From: a virus
Lineage: Duplodnaviria; Heunggongvirae; Uroviricota; Caudoviricetes
IMG/VR virus record: IMGVR_UViG_2872698443_000008
Reading direction: 5' to 3' (one strand)
Length of the DNA: 42,559 nt
Below, in pieces: positions 4,194 to 38,470 of the stretch; the first letter of the stretch is position 1; each line of letters starts with the position of its first letter. The notes under the pieces were generated by a model. The model did not search any database and was not told where the DNA came from. It worked only from the letters and a program-made list of their open reading frames with translations. The translations under genes and the position numbers were made by a program.

Positions 4194-4748
4194 TTATATA
4201 ACCCTGGCTGGAAACCTCTTATACAAAGTTGACACACCAACATCATAGATAATAGCCACCTTCTGGCGAGGAACGCCTGATGCAATTAATCGCCCGGCCT
4301 GCGCCCATTGTTCTGGTGTAAGTTTGGGACGACGTCCACCAATTCGTCCCTGTGCGCGAGCAGCTTCCAGTCCAGCTTTTGTTCGTTCAACAATCAGTTC
4401 TCGTTCCATTTCAGCCAGGGCACCCATCACATGAAAGAAAAAACGCCCCATCGGTGTGCTGGTATCAATAGCATCCGTCAGGCTGCGAAAATTAACGCCA
4501 CGTTCGCGCAACTCCTCAACCAGAATGACCAGATGCCGCATACTACGTCCCAGCCGATCCAGCTTCCAGACAACCAGAGTGTCACCTGCCGATAATGTCC
4601 TGAGCAGTTTTTTCAGTCCCGGCCTTTCGGACTTTGTACCGCTTACCTTGTCTTCAAAAATCAGCTCGCATCCTGCACAGTTCAGCGCATTACGTTGTAG
4701 ATCTGTGTTCTGGTCATTTGTTGACACACGTACATAGCCAATAAGCAT
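4194..4748 (-). CDS. pin: Serine DNA invertase (Pin/Gin/Hin/Cin family)
   Basis: N-terminus MLIGYVRVSTNDQNTDLQ with catalytic Ser motif, C-terminal HTH; start taken at internal Met of ORF 4194-4784. Lies next to the invertible tail-fibre segment. Confidence 0.9.
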   Translation of the reverse strand: MLIGYVRVSTNDQNTDLQRNALNCAGCELIFEDKVSGTKSERPGLKKLLRTLSAGDTLVVWKLDRLGRSMRHLVILVEELRERGVNFRSLTDAIDTSTPMGRFFFHVMGALAEMERELIVERTKAGLEAARAQGRIGGRRPKLTPEQWAQAGRLIASGVPRQKVAIIYDVGVSTLYKRFPARVI

Positions 4749-4804
4749 GGTAGATCTCCCTGACAAAAGCAGGAATGATGCCATTTGCTCGTTATTTCTG
4801 CATT

Positions 4805-4828
4805 TTCATAAACGTTGGTTTGGGAGAA
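4805..4828. promoter_or_regulatory. Invertase crossover site (left boundary of invertible segment)
   Basis: ttcataaacgttggtttgggagaa; reverse complement TTCTCCCAAACCAACG shares the half-site plus AA core with the site at 7484-7509, in inverted orientation. Confidence 0.6.
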
Positions 4829-5164
4829 GCGGCAAAACGGAATGTGGGAACAGGGGAAAATCAGATACCAGATATGTCTGCATTTCCATCTGGCAAAAAC
4901 TGGTTTCAGTTACCAAGTGGTCATATTGTCCAAATGTTTTCGATGAATGTTTATGGGGCGGACACTAACGGAACTACAGGTAATTTCCCTATTGCATTTC
5001 CTTCAGGCGCACTGGCTGTTAGTGCCTTATGGTCAGATGGCACATTAACGGCTGCTCCGACCTTTAAACTTATGGGGTACACGACAACAAGGACATCAGT
5101 AACCTTAAAAGTATCAGCCGGAAATGGTTTGTATGGAACTATGATTATCGCAATAGGAAGATAA
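4829..5164 (+). CDS. Silent alternative tail-fibre C-terminal cassette (promoterless, no own start)
   Basis: Open frame 4775-5164 on the opposite strand to the expressed fibre, ending 1 nt before the alternative assembly gene; begins at the crossover site. Confidence 0.5.
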   Translation, partial: AAKRNVGTGENQIPDMSAFPSGKNWFQLPSGHIVQMFSMNVYGADTNGTTGNFPIAFPSGALAVSALWSDGTLTAAPTFKLMGYTTTRTSVTLKVSAGNGLYGTMIIAIGR

Positions 5165-34282: not shown

Positions 34283-35220
34283 CCCCTGAATCCTGCCGGG
34301 ATCTGGCTGTAGTCCACGTTGTCGTAACTGGATTTGAAGTACGGGTCTTCGCGTTTTTCGGTGTACGTGCTAACGGACGGTGATAAGCGCAGGGAAAGCT
34401 CATCCCATTTTTCCCGCAACTTCGACGGGCTGAGCACGTTACGGCACCAGAACGGATCGCGGCTGACGCGGCTGTACATCTCGCAGATTTGTTTGTGAGT
34501 ACGACCATCCTGCACACACATCAGGCGAATTTCGTTTGCCCAGGCTGTCCAGTTCGGTTCTTTGGGACGAACCACCTCGCCGTCACATTCGGCGGCTTGC
34601 TCGTACAGGGCGATGATTTTTTTCCAGAGCCACTGTGCGCAGGTCAAATCATCCTGCGTTCCCCACTGGCGCTTTTTAGGGCTGAATACAACCGCATCAG
34701 GATGGCGAGTTAAAAAATCCTGTTCATCCGTCTGCGTGTCCGGTTGCGAAGCGTCCGGACGAGAAGGTTTTTTATCTGACGGATCATGTTTTGATTTTAC
34801 TGACGGATCCCCGCCAGATTCTGACGGGTGAAAACCCGCTTTTTTGCCAGATTTCGACGCATCAAATTTTGACGGGTCAGATTTTGATGCGTCAGATTTT
34901 GACGGGTCAGAATCTGACAGTTGAGAAAATGCCGCTGCCTGAAGCTTCGCAACGTTAAGCTGATAAACATTCGACGCATTGCGGTTACCCTGGCGACGCG
35001 CCTTACGCGTTAACCAGCCTTCTGCTTCCAGCCGTGCGATAGCCGTTCTGACGGTACTCATTCCCGCGCCAATCTGGCGGGCAATGGTTTCAATTGATGG
35101 CCAGCACACACCTTCGTCATTACTGAAATCAGCCAGGCGGGCCATAATTGCCACGCTGGATAATTTCATGCCTGATGCAGCGCAACCATCCCATACATAG
35201 CCGGTTAATTTAGTGCTCAT
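34279..35220 (-). CDS. Replication initiator (lambda O-like: N-terminal HTH, iterons inside gene)
   Basis: 313 aa; N-terminal HTH ...WPSIETIARQIGAGMSTVRTAIARLEAEGWL...; internal Ser/Asp/Lys repeats encoded by the iteron array. Confidence 0.7.
   Translation of the reverse strand: MSTKLTGYVWDGCAASGMKLSSVAIMARLADFSNDEGVCWPSIETIARQIGAGMSTVRTAIARLEAEGWLTRKARRQGNRNASNVYQLNVAKLQAAAFSQLSDSDPSKSDASKSDPSKFDASKSGKKAGFHPSESGGDPSVKSKHDPSDKKPSRPDASQPDTQTDEQDFLTRHPDAVVFSPKKRQWGTQDDLTCAQWLWKKIIALYEQAAECDGEVVRPKEPNWTAWANEIRLMCVQDGRTHKQICEMYSRVSRDPFWCRNVLSPSKLREKWDELSLRLSPSVSTYTEKREDPYFKSSYDNVDYSQIPAGFRG
34780..34920. repeat. Iteron array (candidate replication origin) inside the initiator gene
   Basis: About eight tandem copies of a 12-14 bp unit, e.g. 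cagattttgacggg, cagattttgatgcg, aaattttgacggg, gattctgacggg. Confidence 0.55.
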
Positions 35221-36363: not shown

Positions 36364-36435
36364 ATATGTACCTCCGGTGTACATATTACATGATTGAAAT
36401 GAACCTTCAAGATACTTGTACCTTAACGGTACAAG
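36364..36435. promoter_or_regulatory. Operator region between the divergent cro-like and cI-like genes
   Basis: Two palindromes with GTAC cores: ATATGTAC-ctccggt-GTACATAT (36364-36386) and CTTGTACC-ttaac-GGTACAAG (36415-36435). Confidence 0.55.
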
Positions 36436-36450
36436 GGTTTTAATTTCGTT

Positions 36451-37125
36451 ATGAAAACAATCCATGACATCCGGCGGTCTAACGCCAGAAAACTGAGAGA
36501 TGGTGTTGGCGGGAATTCTTCCTTTGCCACTATGATTGATCGCGAGCCAACCCAGACCAGCAGGTTTATGGGAGATGGTGCTACTAAAAATATCGGTGAC
36601 AGCATGGCACGACACATCGAAAAATGTTTCGACCTGCCTGTCGGATGGCTCGATCAAGAACACCAGACAACGAACATCACAAAAAAACCTGATGTTTCAA
36701 TCACTAATAAACAAATCACATTAGTCCCTGTCATATCATGGGTACAGGCCGGAGCATGGAAAGAAGTTGGATATTCTGAGGTTGATTTGAGCACAGCAGA
36801 AACGTATCCCTGCCCTGTACCCTGTGGGGAAATGACTTATATCTTGCGGGTGATAGGTGATTCAATGATTGATGAGTACCGCCCGGGAGACATGATTTTT
36901 GTCGATCCTGAAGTACCTGCCTGCCACGGTGACGACGTTATTGCATTGATGCACGATACAGGCGAAACCACCTTCAAAAGGTTGATAGAAGATGGGACAC
37001 AGCGTTATCTCAAAGCGTTAAACCCAAACTGGCCTGAGCCTTACATTAAGATCAACGGTAATTGCTCTATAATTGGTACAGTGATTTTCTCAGGAAAACC
37101 AAGAAGATACAAAATCAAAGCCTAA
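36451..37125 (+). CDS. CI-like repressor with S24 (LexA-type) autocleavage domain
   Basis: 224 aa; C-terminal ...RVIGDSMIDEYRPGDMIFVD...TTFKRL... (Ser/Lys dyad context). Confidence 0.8.
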   Translation: MKTIHDIRRSNARKLRDGVGGNSSFATMIDREPTQTSRFMGDGATKNIGDSMARHIEKCFDLPVGWLDQEHQTTNITKKPDVSITNKQITLVPVISWVQAGAWKEVGYSEVDLSTAETYPCPVPCGEMTYILRVIGDSMIDEYRPGDMIFVDPEVPACHGDDVIALMHDTGETTFKRLIEDGTQRYLKALNPNWPEPYIKINGNCSIIGTVIFSGKPRRYKIKA

Positions 37126-37139
37126 TCAATGTTTATGAA

Positions 37140-37160
37140 CCTGCTTCGGCAGGTTTTTTT
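37140..37160 (+). terminator. Intrinsic terminator after the repressor gene
   Basis: CCTGC-TTCG-GCAGG followed by TTTTTTT. Confidence 0.7.
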
Positions 37161-37164
37161 ATAC

Positions 37165-37197
37165 TTGACAATGTACCTTTGAGATACATAATGTACC
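37165..37197 (+). promoter_or_regulatory. PL-like promoter with operator-like repeats
   Basis: TTGACA (37165-37170), 17-nt spacer, ATAATG; two copies of AATGTACC overlapping, sharing the GTAC core of the 36364-36435 palindromes. Confidence 0.5.
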
Positions 37198-37296
37198 CAA
37201 GCGAAACAACGAACAGGCAGGACGCCCACGAAGTAGCCGCCTGGGGCATATGAAGTCCAGGATGATTCGTTAGCAACAAAAAAGCGCCCTACAGGA

Positions 37297-37314
37297 CGCT
37301 TAGCTCTTTAACAA
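37297..37314 (+). promoter_or_regulatory. boxA-like antitermination motif in the early-left leader
   Basis: cgcttaGCTCTTTAACAA matches the boxA consensus (GCTCTTTAACAA as in rrn boxA; CGCTCTT in lambda nut). Confidence 0.35.
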
Positions 37315-37359
37315 TCTGGTCCCCATCAACAAGTAACTGATAACTTGAGGAGGTGTGAA

Positions 37360-37566
37360 ATGCACAAAACAGAACCCAAAATCGTCGCGCCTGGCTACAC
37401 AGATGAGGAAATTTATGAGTGGATGACAAAGAAGCTGGCAGCTATAAACCAGCTTCGTGAAGTGCTGTCTTATCGACAGGAAACAATAGACTCCTTAAAA
37501 AAACTGGATCAGGAAATCACAGTTTTATCACAGGATGTTACTTTAGATATTGTGCAGACAAATTAG
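37360..37566 (+). CDS. Small hypothetical early protein (68 aa)
   Basis: ATG at 37360 preceded by GAGGAGG (37347-37353); first ORF after the PL-like promoter. Confidence 0.5.
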   Translation: MHKTEPKIVAPGYTDEEIYEWMTKKLAAINQLREVLSYRQETIDSLKKLDQEITVLSQDVTLDIVQTN

Positions 37567-37972
37567 GATCCCATTCATTTTCGTCAAAATTATCAAAGTG
37601 ATGAATTTGTGATCTCCAGTCTCGATAATCTAAAAATTTCTGGGCGGTTACGCTTATTTTATCAAGTGTGAGTTCATCCTGAATTGAAAGAAGAAGTTCA
37701 TCAAATTTCATCTCATTAATCTGTTTTGGCATCCAGTGATGCTTCATCAGAATAAGGTGAACCAGAGCCTTTTTCCCATTCAACTGATTATAGGGAGTGC
37801 CGAATTTCTTCCGGTGCTCATGTAAGACAAGGTCCAGAAGAGTAAGTAATGTTGCCCTTGATTCAACTTTGCTTATTTCGACTGATGACACTACCCCACT
37901 GATTTCAATGCCCCGATACTTTCCAACATTTTCACAGTGGGATTTGTACAGCGTGTAGATATTACCGGACAT
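37538..37972 (-). CDS. Low-GC hypothetical protein transcribed against the early-left operon
   Basis: 144 aa ORF, AT-rich, AAAGGA before ATG; direct repeats immediately upstream. Confidence 0.55.
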   Translation of the reverse strand: MSGNIYTLYKSHCENVGKYRGIEISGVVSSVEISKVESRATLLTLLDLVLHEHRKKFGTPYNQLNGKKALVHLILMKHHWMPKQINEMKFDELLLSIQDELTLDKISVTAQKFLDYRDWRSQIHHFDNFDENEWDPNLSAQYLK

Positions 37973-37987
37973 TTCTTTTCCTTTTGC

Positions 37988-38039
37988 GTTGTTGGGGATA
38001 ACCAGATTAACCGAATCCTTGTTGTTGGGGAATAACCAG
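37988..38039. repeat. Two direct repeats upstream of the antisense gene
   Basis: gttgttggggataaccag (37988-38005) and gttgttggggaataaccag (38021-38039). Confidence 0.6.
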
Positions 38040-38099
38040 GTCCACCTCGCCTGATGTGGCTAAAAGCAGGCACATAACAGCTAAGTATTTTTAACCAGA

Positions 38100-38470
38100 G
38101 AGAATCCTTAGCGTTGTGGTGAATGCGGCTCAGCGCACGCGGGTTAAGGTTGAGGCTGACAGTCGACCTTCTGTGGATACCCACCCGTCTGGTGTGCAAC
38201 CTTCGCCAGGCACCGGGAGGCACCCGGCACCACAACTTTATGCTGTGTGTAGTCCTGGAGGTACCAGTTTGTACCCTTGCTTCCGGCTGGTACCGTCCTT
38301 TTTACAAAACAGAGAAGAGCATCACCGGACGACGGGCTCATAACCCAATCCATCCGGGCGGCTGCCACCGCAGGTGTTCTTCTCTGTTTTGTGGAGAAAC
38401 TAACCGCCCCTACGGGGGCATTCATGGAAATGTAATTGACTCAATAATCGCCGGACGGTGAGGGCTTCCT
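38100..38470 (+). other. GC-rich non-coding region with nested inverted repeats (candidate structured RNA)
   Basis: No protein-like ORF on any strand. TTGTGGTG (38114-38121) pairs with CACCACAA (38228-38235); AAGGTTG/CAACCTT nested inside; AAAACAGAGAAGAG (38301-38314) pairs with CTTCTCTGTTTT (38377-38390). Confidence 0.3.

Follow-up and report, generated by a model that had tools for sequence, protein, structure and literature searches.

The stretch of DNA analysed here (IMG/VR record IMGVR_UViG_2872698443_000008; 42,559 nucleotides (nt), called the window below) is an SfIV/SfV-like lambdoid prophage adjoining proA. Its early-left region contains a gene of 144 amino acids (aa), the open reading frame (ORF) ORF144, which is considered here together with the two near-identical repeats directly upstream of it and the gene orf73 that runs against it. 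On the plus strand, a cI-like S24 gene is followed by its terminator, the PL-like early-left promoter (PL), a hairpin with a boxA, and orf73, after which ORF144 stands on the minus strand. Further along the plus strand, past ORF144 and the 110 bp that hold the repeats, come an STnc100-like RNA, a long hairpin and the early-left genes ending in xis and int (Table 1). Read on the minus strand, the hairpin from 37301 to 37282 with its T-run scores as an intrinsic-terminator-like site in the terminator scan, and it could halt the ORF144 transcript ahead of PL. The distance between the boxA and the leader upstream of the minus-strand gene is 545-790 nt in nearly all related loci, which are cited below by their L numbers.

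Table 1. Features of the locus, with positions numbered from the first letter of the window
Feature	Position	Strand	Basis
cI-like S24 repressor gene	36451-37125	+	Pfam Peptidase_S24, E 1.5e-26
Terminator of the cI-like gene	37137-37156	+	terminator scan
PL-like early-left promoter, TTGACA-16-CATAAT, 11/12 matches	37165-37192	+	promoter scan
Repeated operator-like motifs AATGTACC, in the PL region	37170-37208		direct-repeat search
Hairpin	37282-37301	+	sequence
rrn/nut-type boxA GCTCTTTAACAA	37303-37314	+	sequence
Third leader-unit copy AATCTGGTCCCCATCAACAAG, inverted relative to the repeats, in the orf73 leader	37313-37333	+	inverted-repeat and motif searches
orf73, first gene of the PL operon, phrog_1744	37360-37566	+	ORF list, co-occurrence
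Intrinsic-terminator-like hairpin inside orf73, antisense strand	37431-37456	-	terminator scan
ORF144, ECs1072 family, cargo of the sieB-type slot	37538-37972	-	ORF list, profile matches
Putative template of a sas-like antisense RNA	37968-38085	+	ends set by homology with the 127-nt P22 sas cluster
Repeat GTTGTTGGGGATAACCAG	37988-38005	plus-strand reading	sequence
Repeat GTTGTTGGGGAATAACCAG, one extra A, 19 nt	38021-38039	plus-strand reading	sequence
Unit 1 CTGGTTATTCCCCAACAAC (38039 to 38021), spacer AAGGATTCGGTTAAT, unit 2 CTGGTTATCCCCAACAAC (38005 to 37988)	37988-38039	-
-35-like TTATTC/TTCCCC; -10-like TAATCT; putative RNA start, in unit 2	38035 to 38027; 38009 to 38004; about 37997	-	P22 homology
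Conserved 30-nt element GCCTGCTTTTAGCCACATCAGGCGAGGTGG	38042-38071	-	upstream of all cargo genes in the slot
STnc100/PasD-like structured RNA with its own intrinsic terminator	38083-38305	+	Rfam RF02076

Over window positions 37100-38409 Shigella phage SfIV is 98.6% identical, and its copy of ORF144 is annotated only as hypothetical protein gp36. Homology to SfV, which lacks ORF144 and has a different 81-aa gene at the site, breaks at 37271 and again at 38042, so that the repeats belong to a 770-bp cassette. This cassette is common in E. coli and Shigella, occurring whole in 408 of 5,426 complete E. coli genomes (about 7.5%), and the serotype-converting phage SfIV is among its carriers. The locus is experimentally tractable.

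ORF144 belongs to the ECs1072 family

ORF144 is a real gene. It begins with an ATG that has the Shine-Dalgarno sequence AAGGA 9 nt upstream, and the initial annotation, which had singled it out as an AT-rich frame antisense to the PL operon, is borne out both by its GC content (38.2%, against 51.0% for the whole window) and by its match to a curated family. This is NCBIfam NF033230, 'ECs1072 family phage-associated protein', which it hits at 156 bits (curated cut-off 70 bits), with residues 4-144 aligned to positions 2-142 of the 142 in the profile; it also matches phrog_5286 (E 4.7e-90). An exhaustive search yielded 64 cluster representatives of the family, about 145-155 aa long, in whose alignment H72 and W134 are invariant and R54, L64, G66, A69 and W80 nearly so. 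The AlphaFold2 model (mean predicted local distance difference test score, pLDDT, 94; predicted template modelling score, pTM, 0.88) points to a soluble, all-α protein. Sequence searches of Pfam, PADLOC and the PDB, made with ORF144 alone and with a 50-sequence family, gave no match, and no homology of ORF144 to a housekeeping phage function, by which the initial annotation had proposed to judge its reading, was found.

The intrinsic-terminator-like hairpin inside orf73 lies about 80 nt past the ORF144 stop (-15.6 kcal/mol, z = -3.3) and is conserved in L004. ECs1072 itself appears among the growth-phase-regulated genes in a table of the O157 Sakai array study. In the gut metagenome contigs L005-L008, by proA, a decayed prophage remnant contains a truncated ECs1072 gene joined to a Caudo_TAP fragment; the fusion is followed by a UvrD-like helicase and a 212-aa gene, with an AbiTii-domain gene in L006, so that these surroundings look defence-island-like.

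The upstream region matches the sieB control region of P22 and lambda

The sieB-esc-sas module of phages P22 and lambda was reportedly described by Ranade and Poteete in 1993. In the P22 model, SieB is an exclusion factor that is inhibited by Esc, a shorter in-frame product, and the sas RNA from an infecting phage blocks SieB translation and allows Esc (PMC12197685, PMC10002423, PMC3224144). The sequence of the P22 sas antisense RNA was printed in a 2026 RNA-seq paper (PMC13397905), from Table 2 of which we took it as a 127-nt read cluster. On P22 this sequence falls immediately ahead of sieB and reaches a little way into it; on lambda it falls immediately ahead of the gene. The plus strand of the window at 37990-38074 is identical to it at 63 of 87 positions (72%, E 2e-11), a match that spans both repeats and the 30-nt element, and a multiple alignment that includes P22 and lambda shows the 110 bp preceding ORF144 to match the sieB control region.

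The correspondence extends to the parts of the promoter and to the order of the genes. In the P22virB-3 record, the feature 'promoter; sieB RNA start site' coincides with TGTACCCCTACAGCGAGAAATCGGATAAACT, that is, with repeat 1, the spacer and the -10 (repeats numbered as the units in Table 1). The P22 sieB promoter has its -35 side in repeat 1, its -10 TAAACT in the spacer and its RNA start in repeat 2, and the window equivalent of this -10 is the TAATCT of Table 1. P22 has the same succession of PL, nutL boxA, an early gene, sieB on the opposite strand and then the leader, its nutL boxA being annotated at the place equivalent to the window boxA. Lambda, which is among the recovered contigs, has a sieB leader with the 30-nt element and two CCCCTACAG repeats placed as are the CCCCAACAAC repeats of the window, and this leader runs into ATGAGTATAGAAATGGATCC, which we take to be the start of sieB (34482), the BamHI site lying at 34499.

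Taken as an alignment result, the control region of ORF144 is thus very probably homologous to that of sieB in P22 and lambda. Of the two positions to which the initial annotation had likened that of ORF144, the sieB position is therefore upheld, with upstream DNA that matches the sieB promoter/leader and sas region and a layout like that of P22, and the rexAB position has to be given up. Lambda rexAB lies between cI and PL and is co-transcribed with cI, whereas ORF144 lies downstream of PL on the opposite strand, with a terminator and PL in between, has its own promoter, and shows no RexA/RexB homology and no PADLOC or Pfam match. What the two would share, by analogy, is a prophage-expressed exclusion function in the immunity region.

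By the same homology, a sas-like RNA would extend over both repeats and the 30-nt element as well as the Shine-Dalgarno sequence and start codon of ORF144, and the plus strand of the 30-nt element would form its 3' part. There is no Rfam family for sas, and its conservation well beyond sieB has apparently not been described in the searchable literature; an Rfam scan gave nothing on the minus strand and, on the plus strand, only the neighbouring STnc100-like match. Of 200 shuffled versions, 197 fold better than the minus-strand leader RNA (z = +1.97), which is hence unusually unstructured; this would favour fast pairing. The leader is also conserved far better than the cargo behind it: L010 keeps the leader with a protein that is only 34% identical. 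A sigma-70 scan of 37973-38100 on both strands found no consensus promoter, and the placement of the hexamers in Table 1 is by P22 homology only.

The repeats as duplicated promoter/leader units

Both repeats reported by the initial annotation are in place, the second with one extra A. They are no chance match: a gapped motif search found the repeat unit in this cassette only, with 0 of 100 shuffles giving it. More than 120 viral contigs share the 29-mer across both repeats exactly, and the homology among them ends directly after repeat 2. Both copies in any one leader share an allele, either CCCCAACAAC or CCCCTACAG; the two repeats thus evolve in concert. Other leaders have a single unit, and in these the 30-nt element, with a good extended -10 (TGgTATnCT) right behind it, supplies the -35 and the spacer of the promoter, the single unit resembling unit 2 of the window (TATGCTGGAGTTCTCACACAGC vs TAATCTGGATATCCCCAACAAC). 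By this comparison of leaders, the repeats are one promoter/leader unit duplicated in tandem.

A third copy of this unit, which the initial annotation had missed, stands in the orf73 leader. It is complementary at 13 of 14 positions to 38018-38031, in the region of repeat 1, and in L100 it has the same CAACAATG variant as the cargo-side unit of that locus. It could be a second promoter unit or an antisense-RNA target.

Three further readings of the leader were rejected. The 30-nt element contains the interleaved inverted repeats GCCTG..CAGGC and CCAC..GTGG, and an RNA pseudoknot pairing GCCUG/CAGGC with CCAC/GUGG fails on natural variants, which break pairs with no compensation. ACAAGGAU, in the spacer between the window repeats, resembles a CsrA binding core, and L009 has a gene for a phage CsrA homologue (2-169) immediately upstream of an ECs1072 homologue of 37% identity, the two genes being divergent. 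Both a CsrA-site reading built on these two observations and a reading of the C/A-rich repeats as a GcvB target were set aside in view of the P22 annotation, by which the RNA starts only after repeat 1 and the spacer.

The sieB control site as a slot for accessory genes

Scanning one genome per species with the 30-nt element recovered 62 loci, mostly Enterobacterales prophages. With all loci pooled, the first ORF after the element belongs to 27 unrelated families, lambda/P22 SieB included, and since about 27 unrelated families stand behind the same control region, the sieB control site is, as far as sequence comparison goes, a swap-in slot for accessory genes. Apart from ECs1072-family members, the cargo behind the leader includes a 155-208-aa coiled-coil protein with four cysteines and a proline-rich peptide of 25-28 aa, after which comes a protein of 150-162 aa with two membrane helices; the latter weakly matches the 2TM effector models of CBASS, the cyclic oligonucleotide-based anti-phage signalling systems (E 0.004). 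Such uncharacterised leader cargo occurs in L014, L035, L089, L074, L028 and further viral loci. The 30-nt element can hence serve as a sequence handle for harvesting prophage accessory and anti-phage candidates, most of which are unannotated.

orf73 as the partner of ORF144

The gene orf73 encodes 68 aa from the ATG at 37360, the automatic ORF list having 73 aa from a TTG at 37345, and its product is a predicted helical small protein. It converges with ORF144, the 3' ends of the two sharing 29 nt. An orf73-family gene is likewise convergent and overlapping with the ECs1072 homologue in nearly all loci having enough flank, even where that homologue is only 30-40% identical (L009, L034, L100, L166, L178, L180 and L189), and orf73-family genes are essentially absent where the slot carries other cargo. 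In L003 a GC-rich, apparently structured non-coding stretch (4560-4930) lies 3' of an ECs1072 homologue that stands alone.

A more distant pair is found in ST64B (NC_004313). An unannotated 144-aa ECs1072-family gene (29% identity, E 3e-15; record 36435-36869; L194 10436-10870, minus strand) lies there in antisense orientation, with Q (sb49) on one side and the holin gene (sb51) on the other, in the late region and without a sieB-type leader, and overlaps by 71 nt with sb50, a distant member of the orf73 family (profile E 2e-5). The ECs1072/orf73 pairing thus survives relocation. In strain D23580 these genes are STMMW_20121 (the ECs1072 homologue) and STMMW_20131 (sb50), an identification that follows from the identical 435-nt length, the same neighbours and the same 71-nt overlap in the supplement coordinates. 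STMMW_20121 is described as having its own promoter, from which it is transcribed under nearly every condition (Owen et al. 2020, PMC7067206); all but one of the values shown for it are roughly 60-270, those of the lytic genes in the same listing being lower, and the supplement of that paper lists substantial values for both STMMW_20121 and STMMW_20131. Besides the entry of ECs1072 in the O157 array list, the ST64B data are the only direct expression evidence for the family. The ST64B gene is comparable to that of the window in being antisense to lytic genes, in its convergent overlapping partner and in transcription in the lysogen (PMC7067206); it differs in its location between Q and the holin gene and in the lack of the leader.

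Proposed function of the module

We propose that the locus represents a prophage accessory module of the sieB type, with SieB replaced by an unrelated two-gene cargo, a reading to which we assign a probability of roughly 50%. That this cargo functions as an exclusion effector plus its antidote is argued by analogy with SieB and Esc and is possible, with the odds somewhat against it.

In the lysogen, cI would repress PL, and ORF144 would be transcribed from the weak sieB-type promoter with the -10 TAATCT, starting in repeat 2, and translated from a short, unstructured, C/A-rich leader. Its product would act as an exclusion or abortive-infection effector against other phages. Once PL is fired by the resident phage or an incoming relative, transcription would run antisense through ORF144, and a sas-like RNA, which we assume to arise by read-through from PL and processing, would pair with the start codon, the Shine-Dalgarno sequence and the leader and so turn off new ORF144 synthesis. 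The orf73 product, made at once as that of the first PL gene, would then act on pre-existing ORF144 protein, as Esc does on SieB.

The resemblance to sieB-esc-sas lies in the position of ORF144, antisense in the PL operon just past nutL/boxA and the first early gene; in the window's 30-nt element, two C-rich repeats and TAAnCT -10, with a plus strand that matches sas; and, by analogy, in an expected expression from the prophage with a built-in phage switch-off. The differences are that the ORF144 product is predicted to be soluble and all-α and has no Pfam SieB match, whereas SieB is a membrane protein; that ORF144 has, instead of an in-frame Esc product, the separate convergent overlapping orf73; and that the window repeats have the allele CCCCAACAAC rather than CCCCTACAG.

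BstA, a protein that Owen et al. reportedly showed in 2021 to act in abortive infection and to have a cognate self-immunity element, is alike in logic, being a prophage-expressed accessory gene near the immunity region with an escape route for the resident phage. It has no sequence relation to ORF144 (no PADLOC match), and its self-immunity is a DNA element inside the gene, whereas ORF144 would use an antisense RNA and possibly a partner protein. The BstA of prophage BTP1 has been named as a constitutively transcribed accessory locus (PMC7067206).

A wider and rather doubtful extension is that the sieB promoter/sas unit is a general plug-in socket of enterobacterial lambdoid prophages, in which any inserted gene would be on in the lysogen and silenced by the PL transcript. 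ECs1072 and orf73 would then be a hitherto unrecognised, new-fold exclusion/anti-exclusion or toxin/antidote pair, both genes of which could be controlled by a single antisense RNA through the leader copies on either side (37313-37333 and 37988-38039). The accessory-module reading already turns a hypothetical gene with odd repeats into a testable module, whose control logic would be that of the little-studied sieB-esc-sas system and whose effector and partner would be new.

Several results weigh against the proposed module and its function. On the protein side, no structural relatives of the ORF144 model were found, none of the PADLOC defence models matches ORF144, and hhalign of the ECs1072 profile against P22 SieB gives a probability of 0.2%, i.e. 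the two are unrelated; with no SieB kinship, PADLOC match or structural relatives, the anti-phage role is therefore read from position and analogy only. The internal Met codons 76, 81 and 88 of ORF144 are not conserved in the family alignment, and there is no Esc-like start. On the side of expression, the two promoter hexamers, at 3/6 each, are weak and score under the scanner threshold, and the sequence shows no sigma-70 promoter from which a separate sas-like RNA could start. As for cargo and partner, one protein found behind the leader, a secreted one with weak similarity to LprI, does not look anti-phage; the L003 homologue (55% identity) has no orf73 partner; and both ST64B partners are transcribed in lysogens, which a toxin-antitoxin-like pair fits better than a lytic-only antidote.

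Alternative explanations

The last of these points leads to a version with the roles reversed, in which orf73 would be a harmful early protein, kil-like or for host takeover, and ORF144 the lysogen's antidote against leaky PL; antisense shut-off at induction would free orf73, and exclusion would be a by-product of neutralising orf73-like proteins. The strict co-occurrence and convergent overlap of the two families suit such a scheme, as do the transcription of both genes in ST64B lysogens, the place of orf73 as the first gene after PL, and an ORF144 product that has none of the membrane or nuclease features typical of effectors. We nevertheless regard it as unlikely: nothing points to orf73 toxicity, the slot also holds the exclusion protein SieB and membrane proteins weakly like CBASS 2TM effectors, and the L003 homologue does without a partner.

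A little less likely again is that ORF144 is a lysogenic-conversion or host-physiology gene outside any phage-phage conflict, the leader being a portable promoter and recombination linker and the sas-like strand a functionless relic. The obligatory PL-side partner gene, which suggests a link to the lytic programme, sits badly with this, as do the concerted evolution of the two repeats and the conservation of the leader, which far exceeds that of the cargo (34% identity in L010) and takes in repeat 1 and the 30-nt element, in P22 transcribed only antisense. What speaks for it is the great variety of cargo families, some of them unlike defence, together with the want of a PADLOC match, the growth-phase regulation of ECs1072 in the array study and the behaviour of the 30-nt element, which acts like a DNA-level promoter sequence with no compensatory changes.

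The initial annotation had itself taken the repeats for binding sites of a regulator, and operators for a repressor or host factor that controls ORF144 would be compatible with sites about three helical turns apart (33-34 bp) on either side of the -10-like hexamer, with the concerted evolution of the repeats and with inverted repeats in the 30-nt element that could form a protein-binding site. Yet the repeats are unlike the cI operator motif AATGTACC, no candidate regulator gene accompanies them, and single-unit leaders drive the same kinds of cargo without a repeat. Promoter/leader units and a sas template, as indicated by the P22 annotation and the sas RNA, would suffice to explain the sequence with no protein at all, so that the repeats themselves stand and their use as operators becomes improbable.

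A type III toxin-antitoxin system (ToxIN, CptIN or TenpIN), with the repeats as the RNA antitoxin, is suggested by direct repeats immediately upstream of a small prophage gene and is effectively refuted, since the window has only two partial copies (18-19 nt alike per 33-34-nt period) that overlap the promoter, with repeat 1 outside the sense transcript if this starts as in P22, no terminator between them and ORF144, no match of ORF144 to ToxN/AbiQ or any other PADLOC model, and the same repeats preceding unrelated proteins elsewhere.

Neighbouring RNA elements

The RF02076 match next to the leader covers the full length of the model, terminator included, at 38.4 bits (E 4.6e-06), below the gathering score of 47, and is likely a divergent STnc100 relative that is separate from the repeats. 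Set beside the STnc100/PasD small RNAs (RF02076; bioRxiv 10.64898/2026.05.13.724894), the RNA of the window adjoins the leader and, in the direction of transcription from PL, comes next after the sas-like region. SfV, which is without ORF144, has this RNA too.

The PL start is followed at once by a conserved, RNA-like element of about 70 nt (37199-37271, plus strand), which is common to many phages of different immunity regions, among them Yersinia YeP1, Pectobacterium ZF40, Salmonella SEN34 and mEp237. One hairpin in it shows compensatory changes across loci (CCUGG/CCAGG, CCCGG/CCGGG, CCCCA/UGGGG and CCGGU/ACCGG). Because no N-like protein is found in the window, this element may be a put-like cis-acting antiterminator RNA. 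HK022 put itself was rejected as a counterpart, neither the PL leader nor the STnc100-like region having sequence similarity to HK022.

Beyond the STnc100-like RNA, positions 38300-38396 form a very stable long hairpin with a 24-bp stem and a branched top (-49.7 kcal/mol, z = -7.7), which is common to Stx2c phages, mEp460 and the cdtI phage; at the corresponding place L010 carries a comparable hairpin that differs in sequence. Just past it, the window is without about 1.3 kb that in SfIV carries gp34 and the DUF2303 gene gp33 (window 38403-38406; L001 3805-5110), which represents either a clean deletion or an alternative junction.

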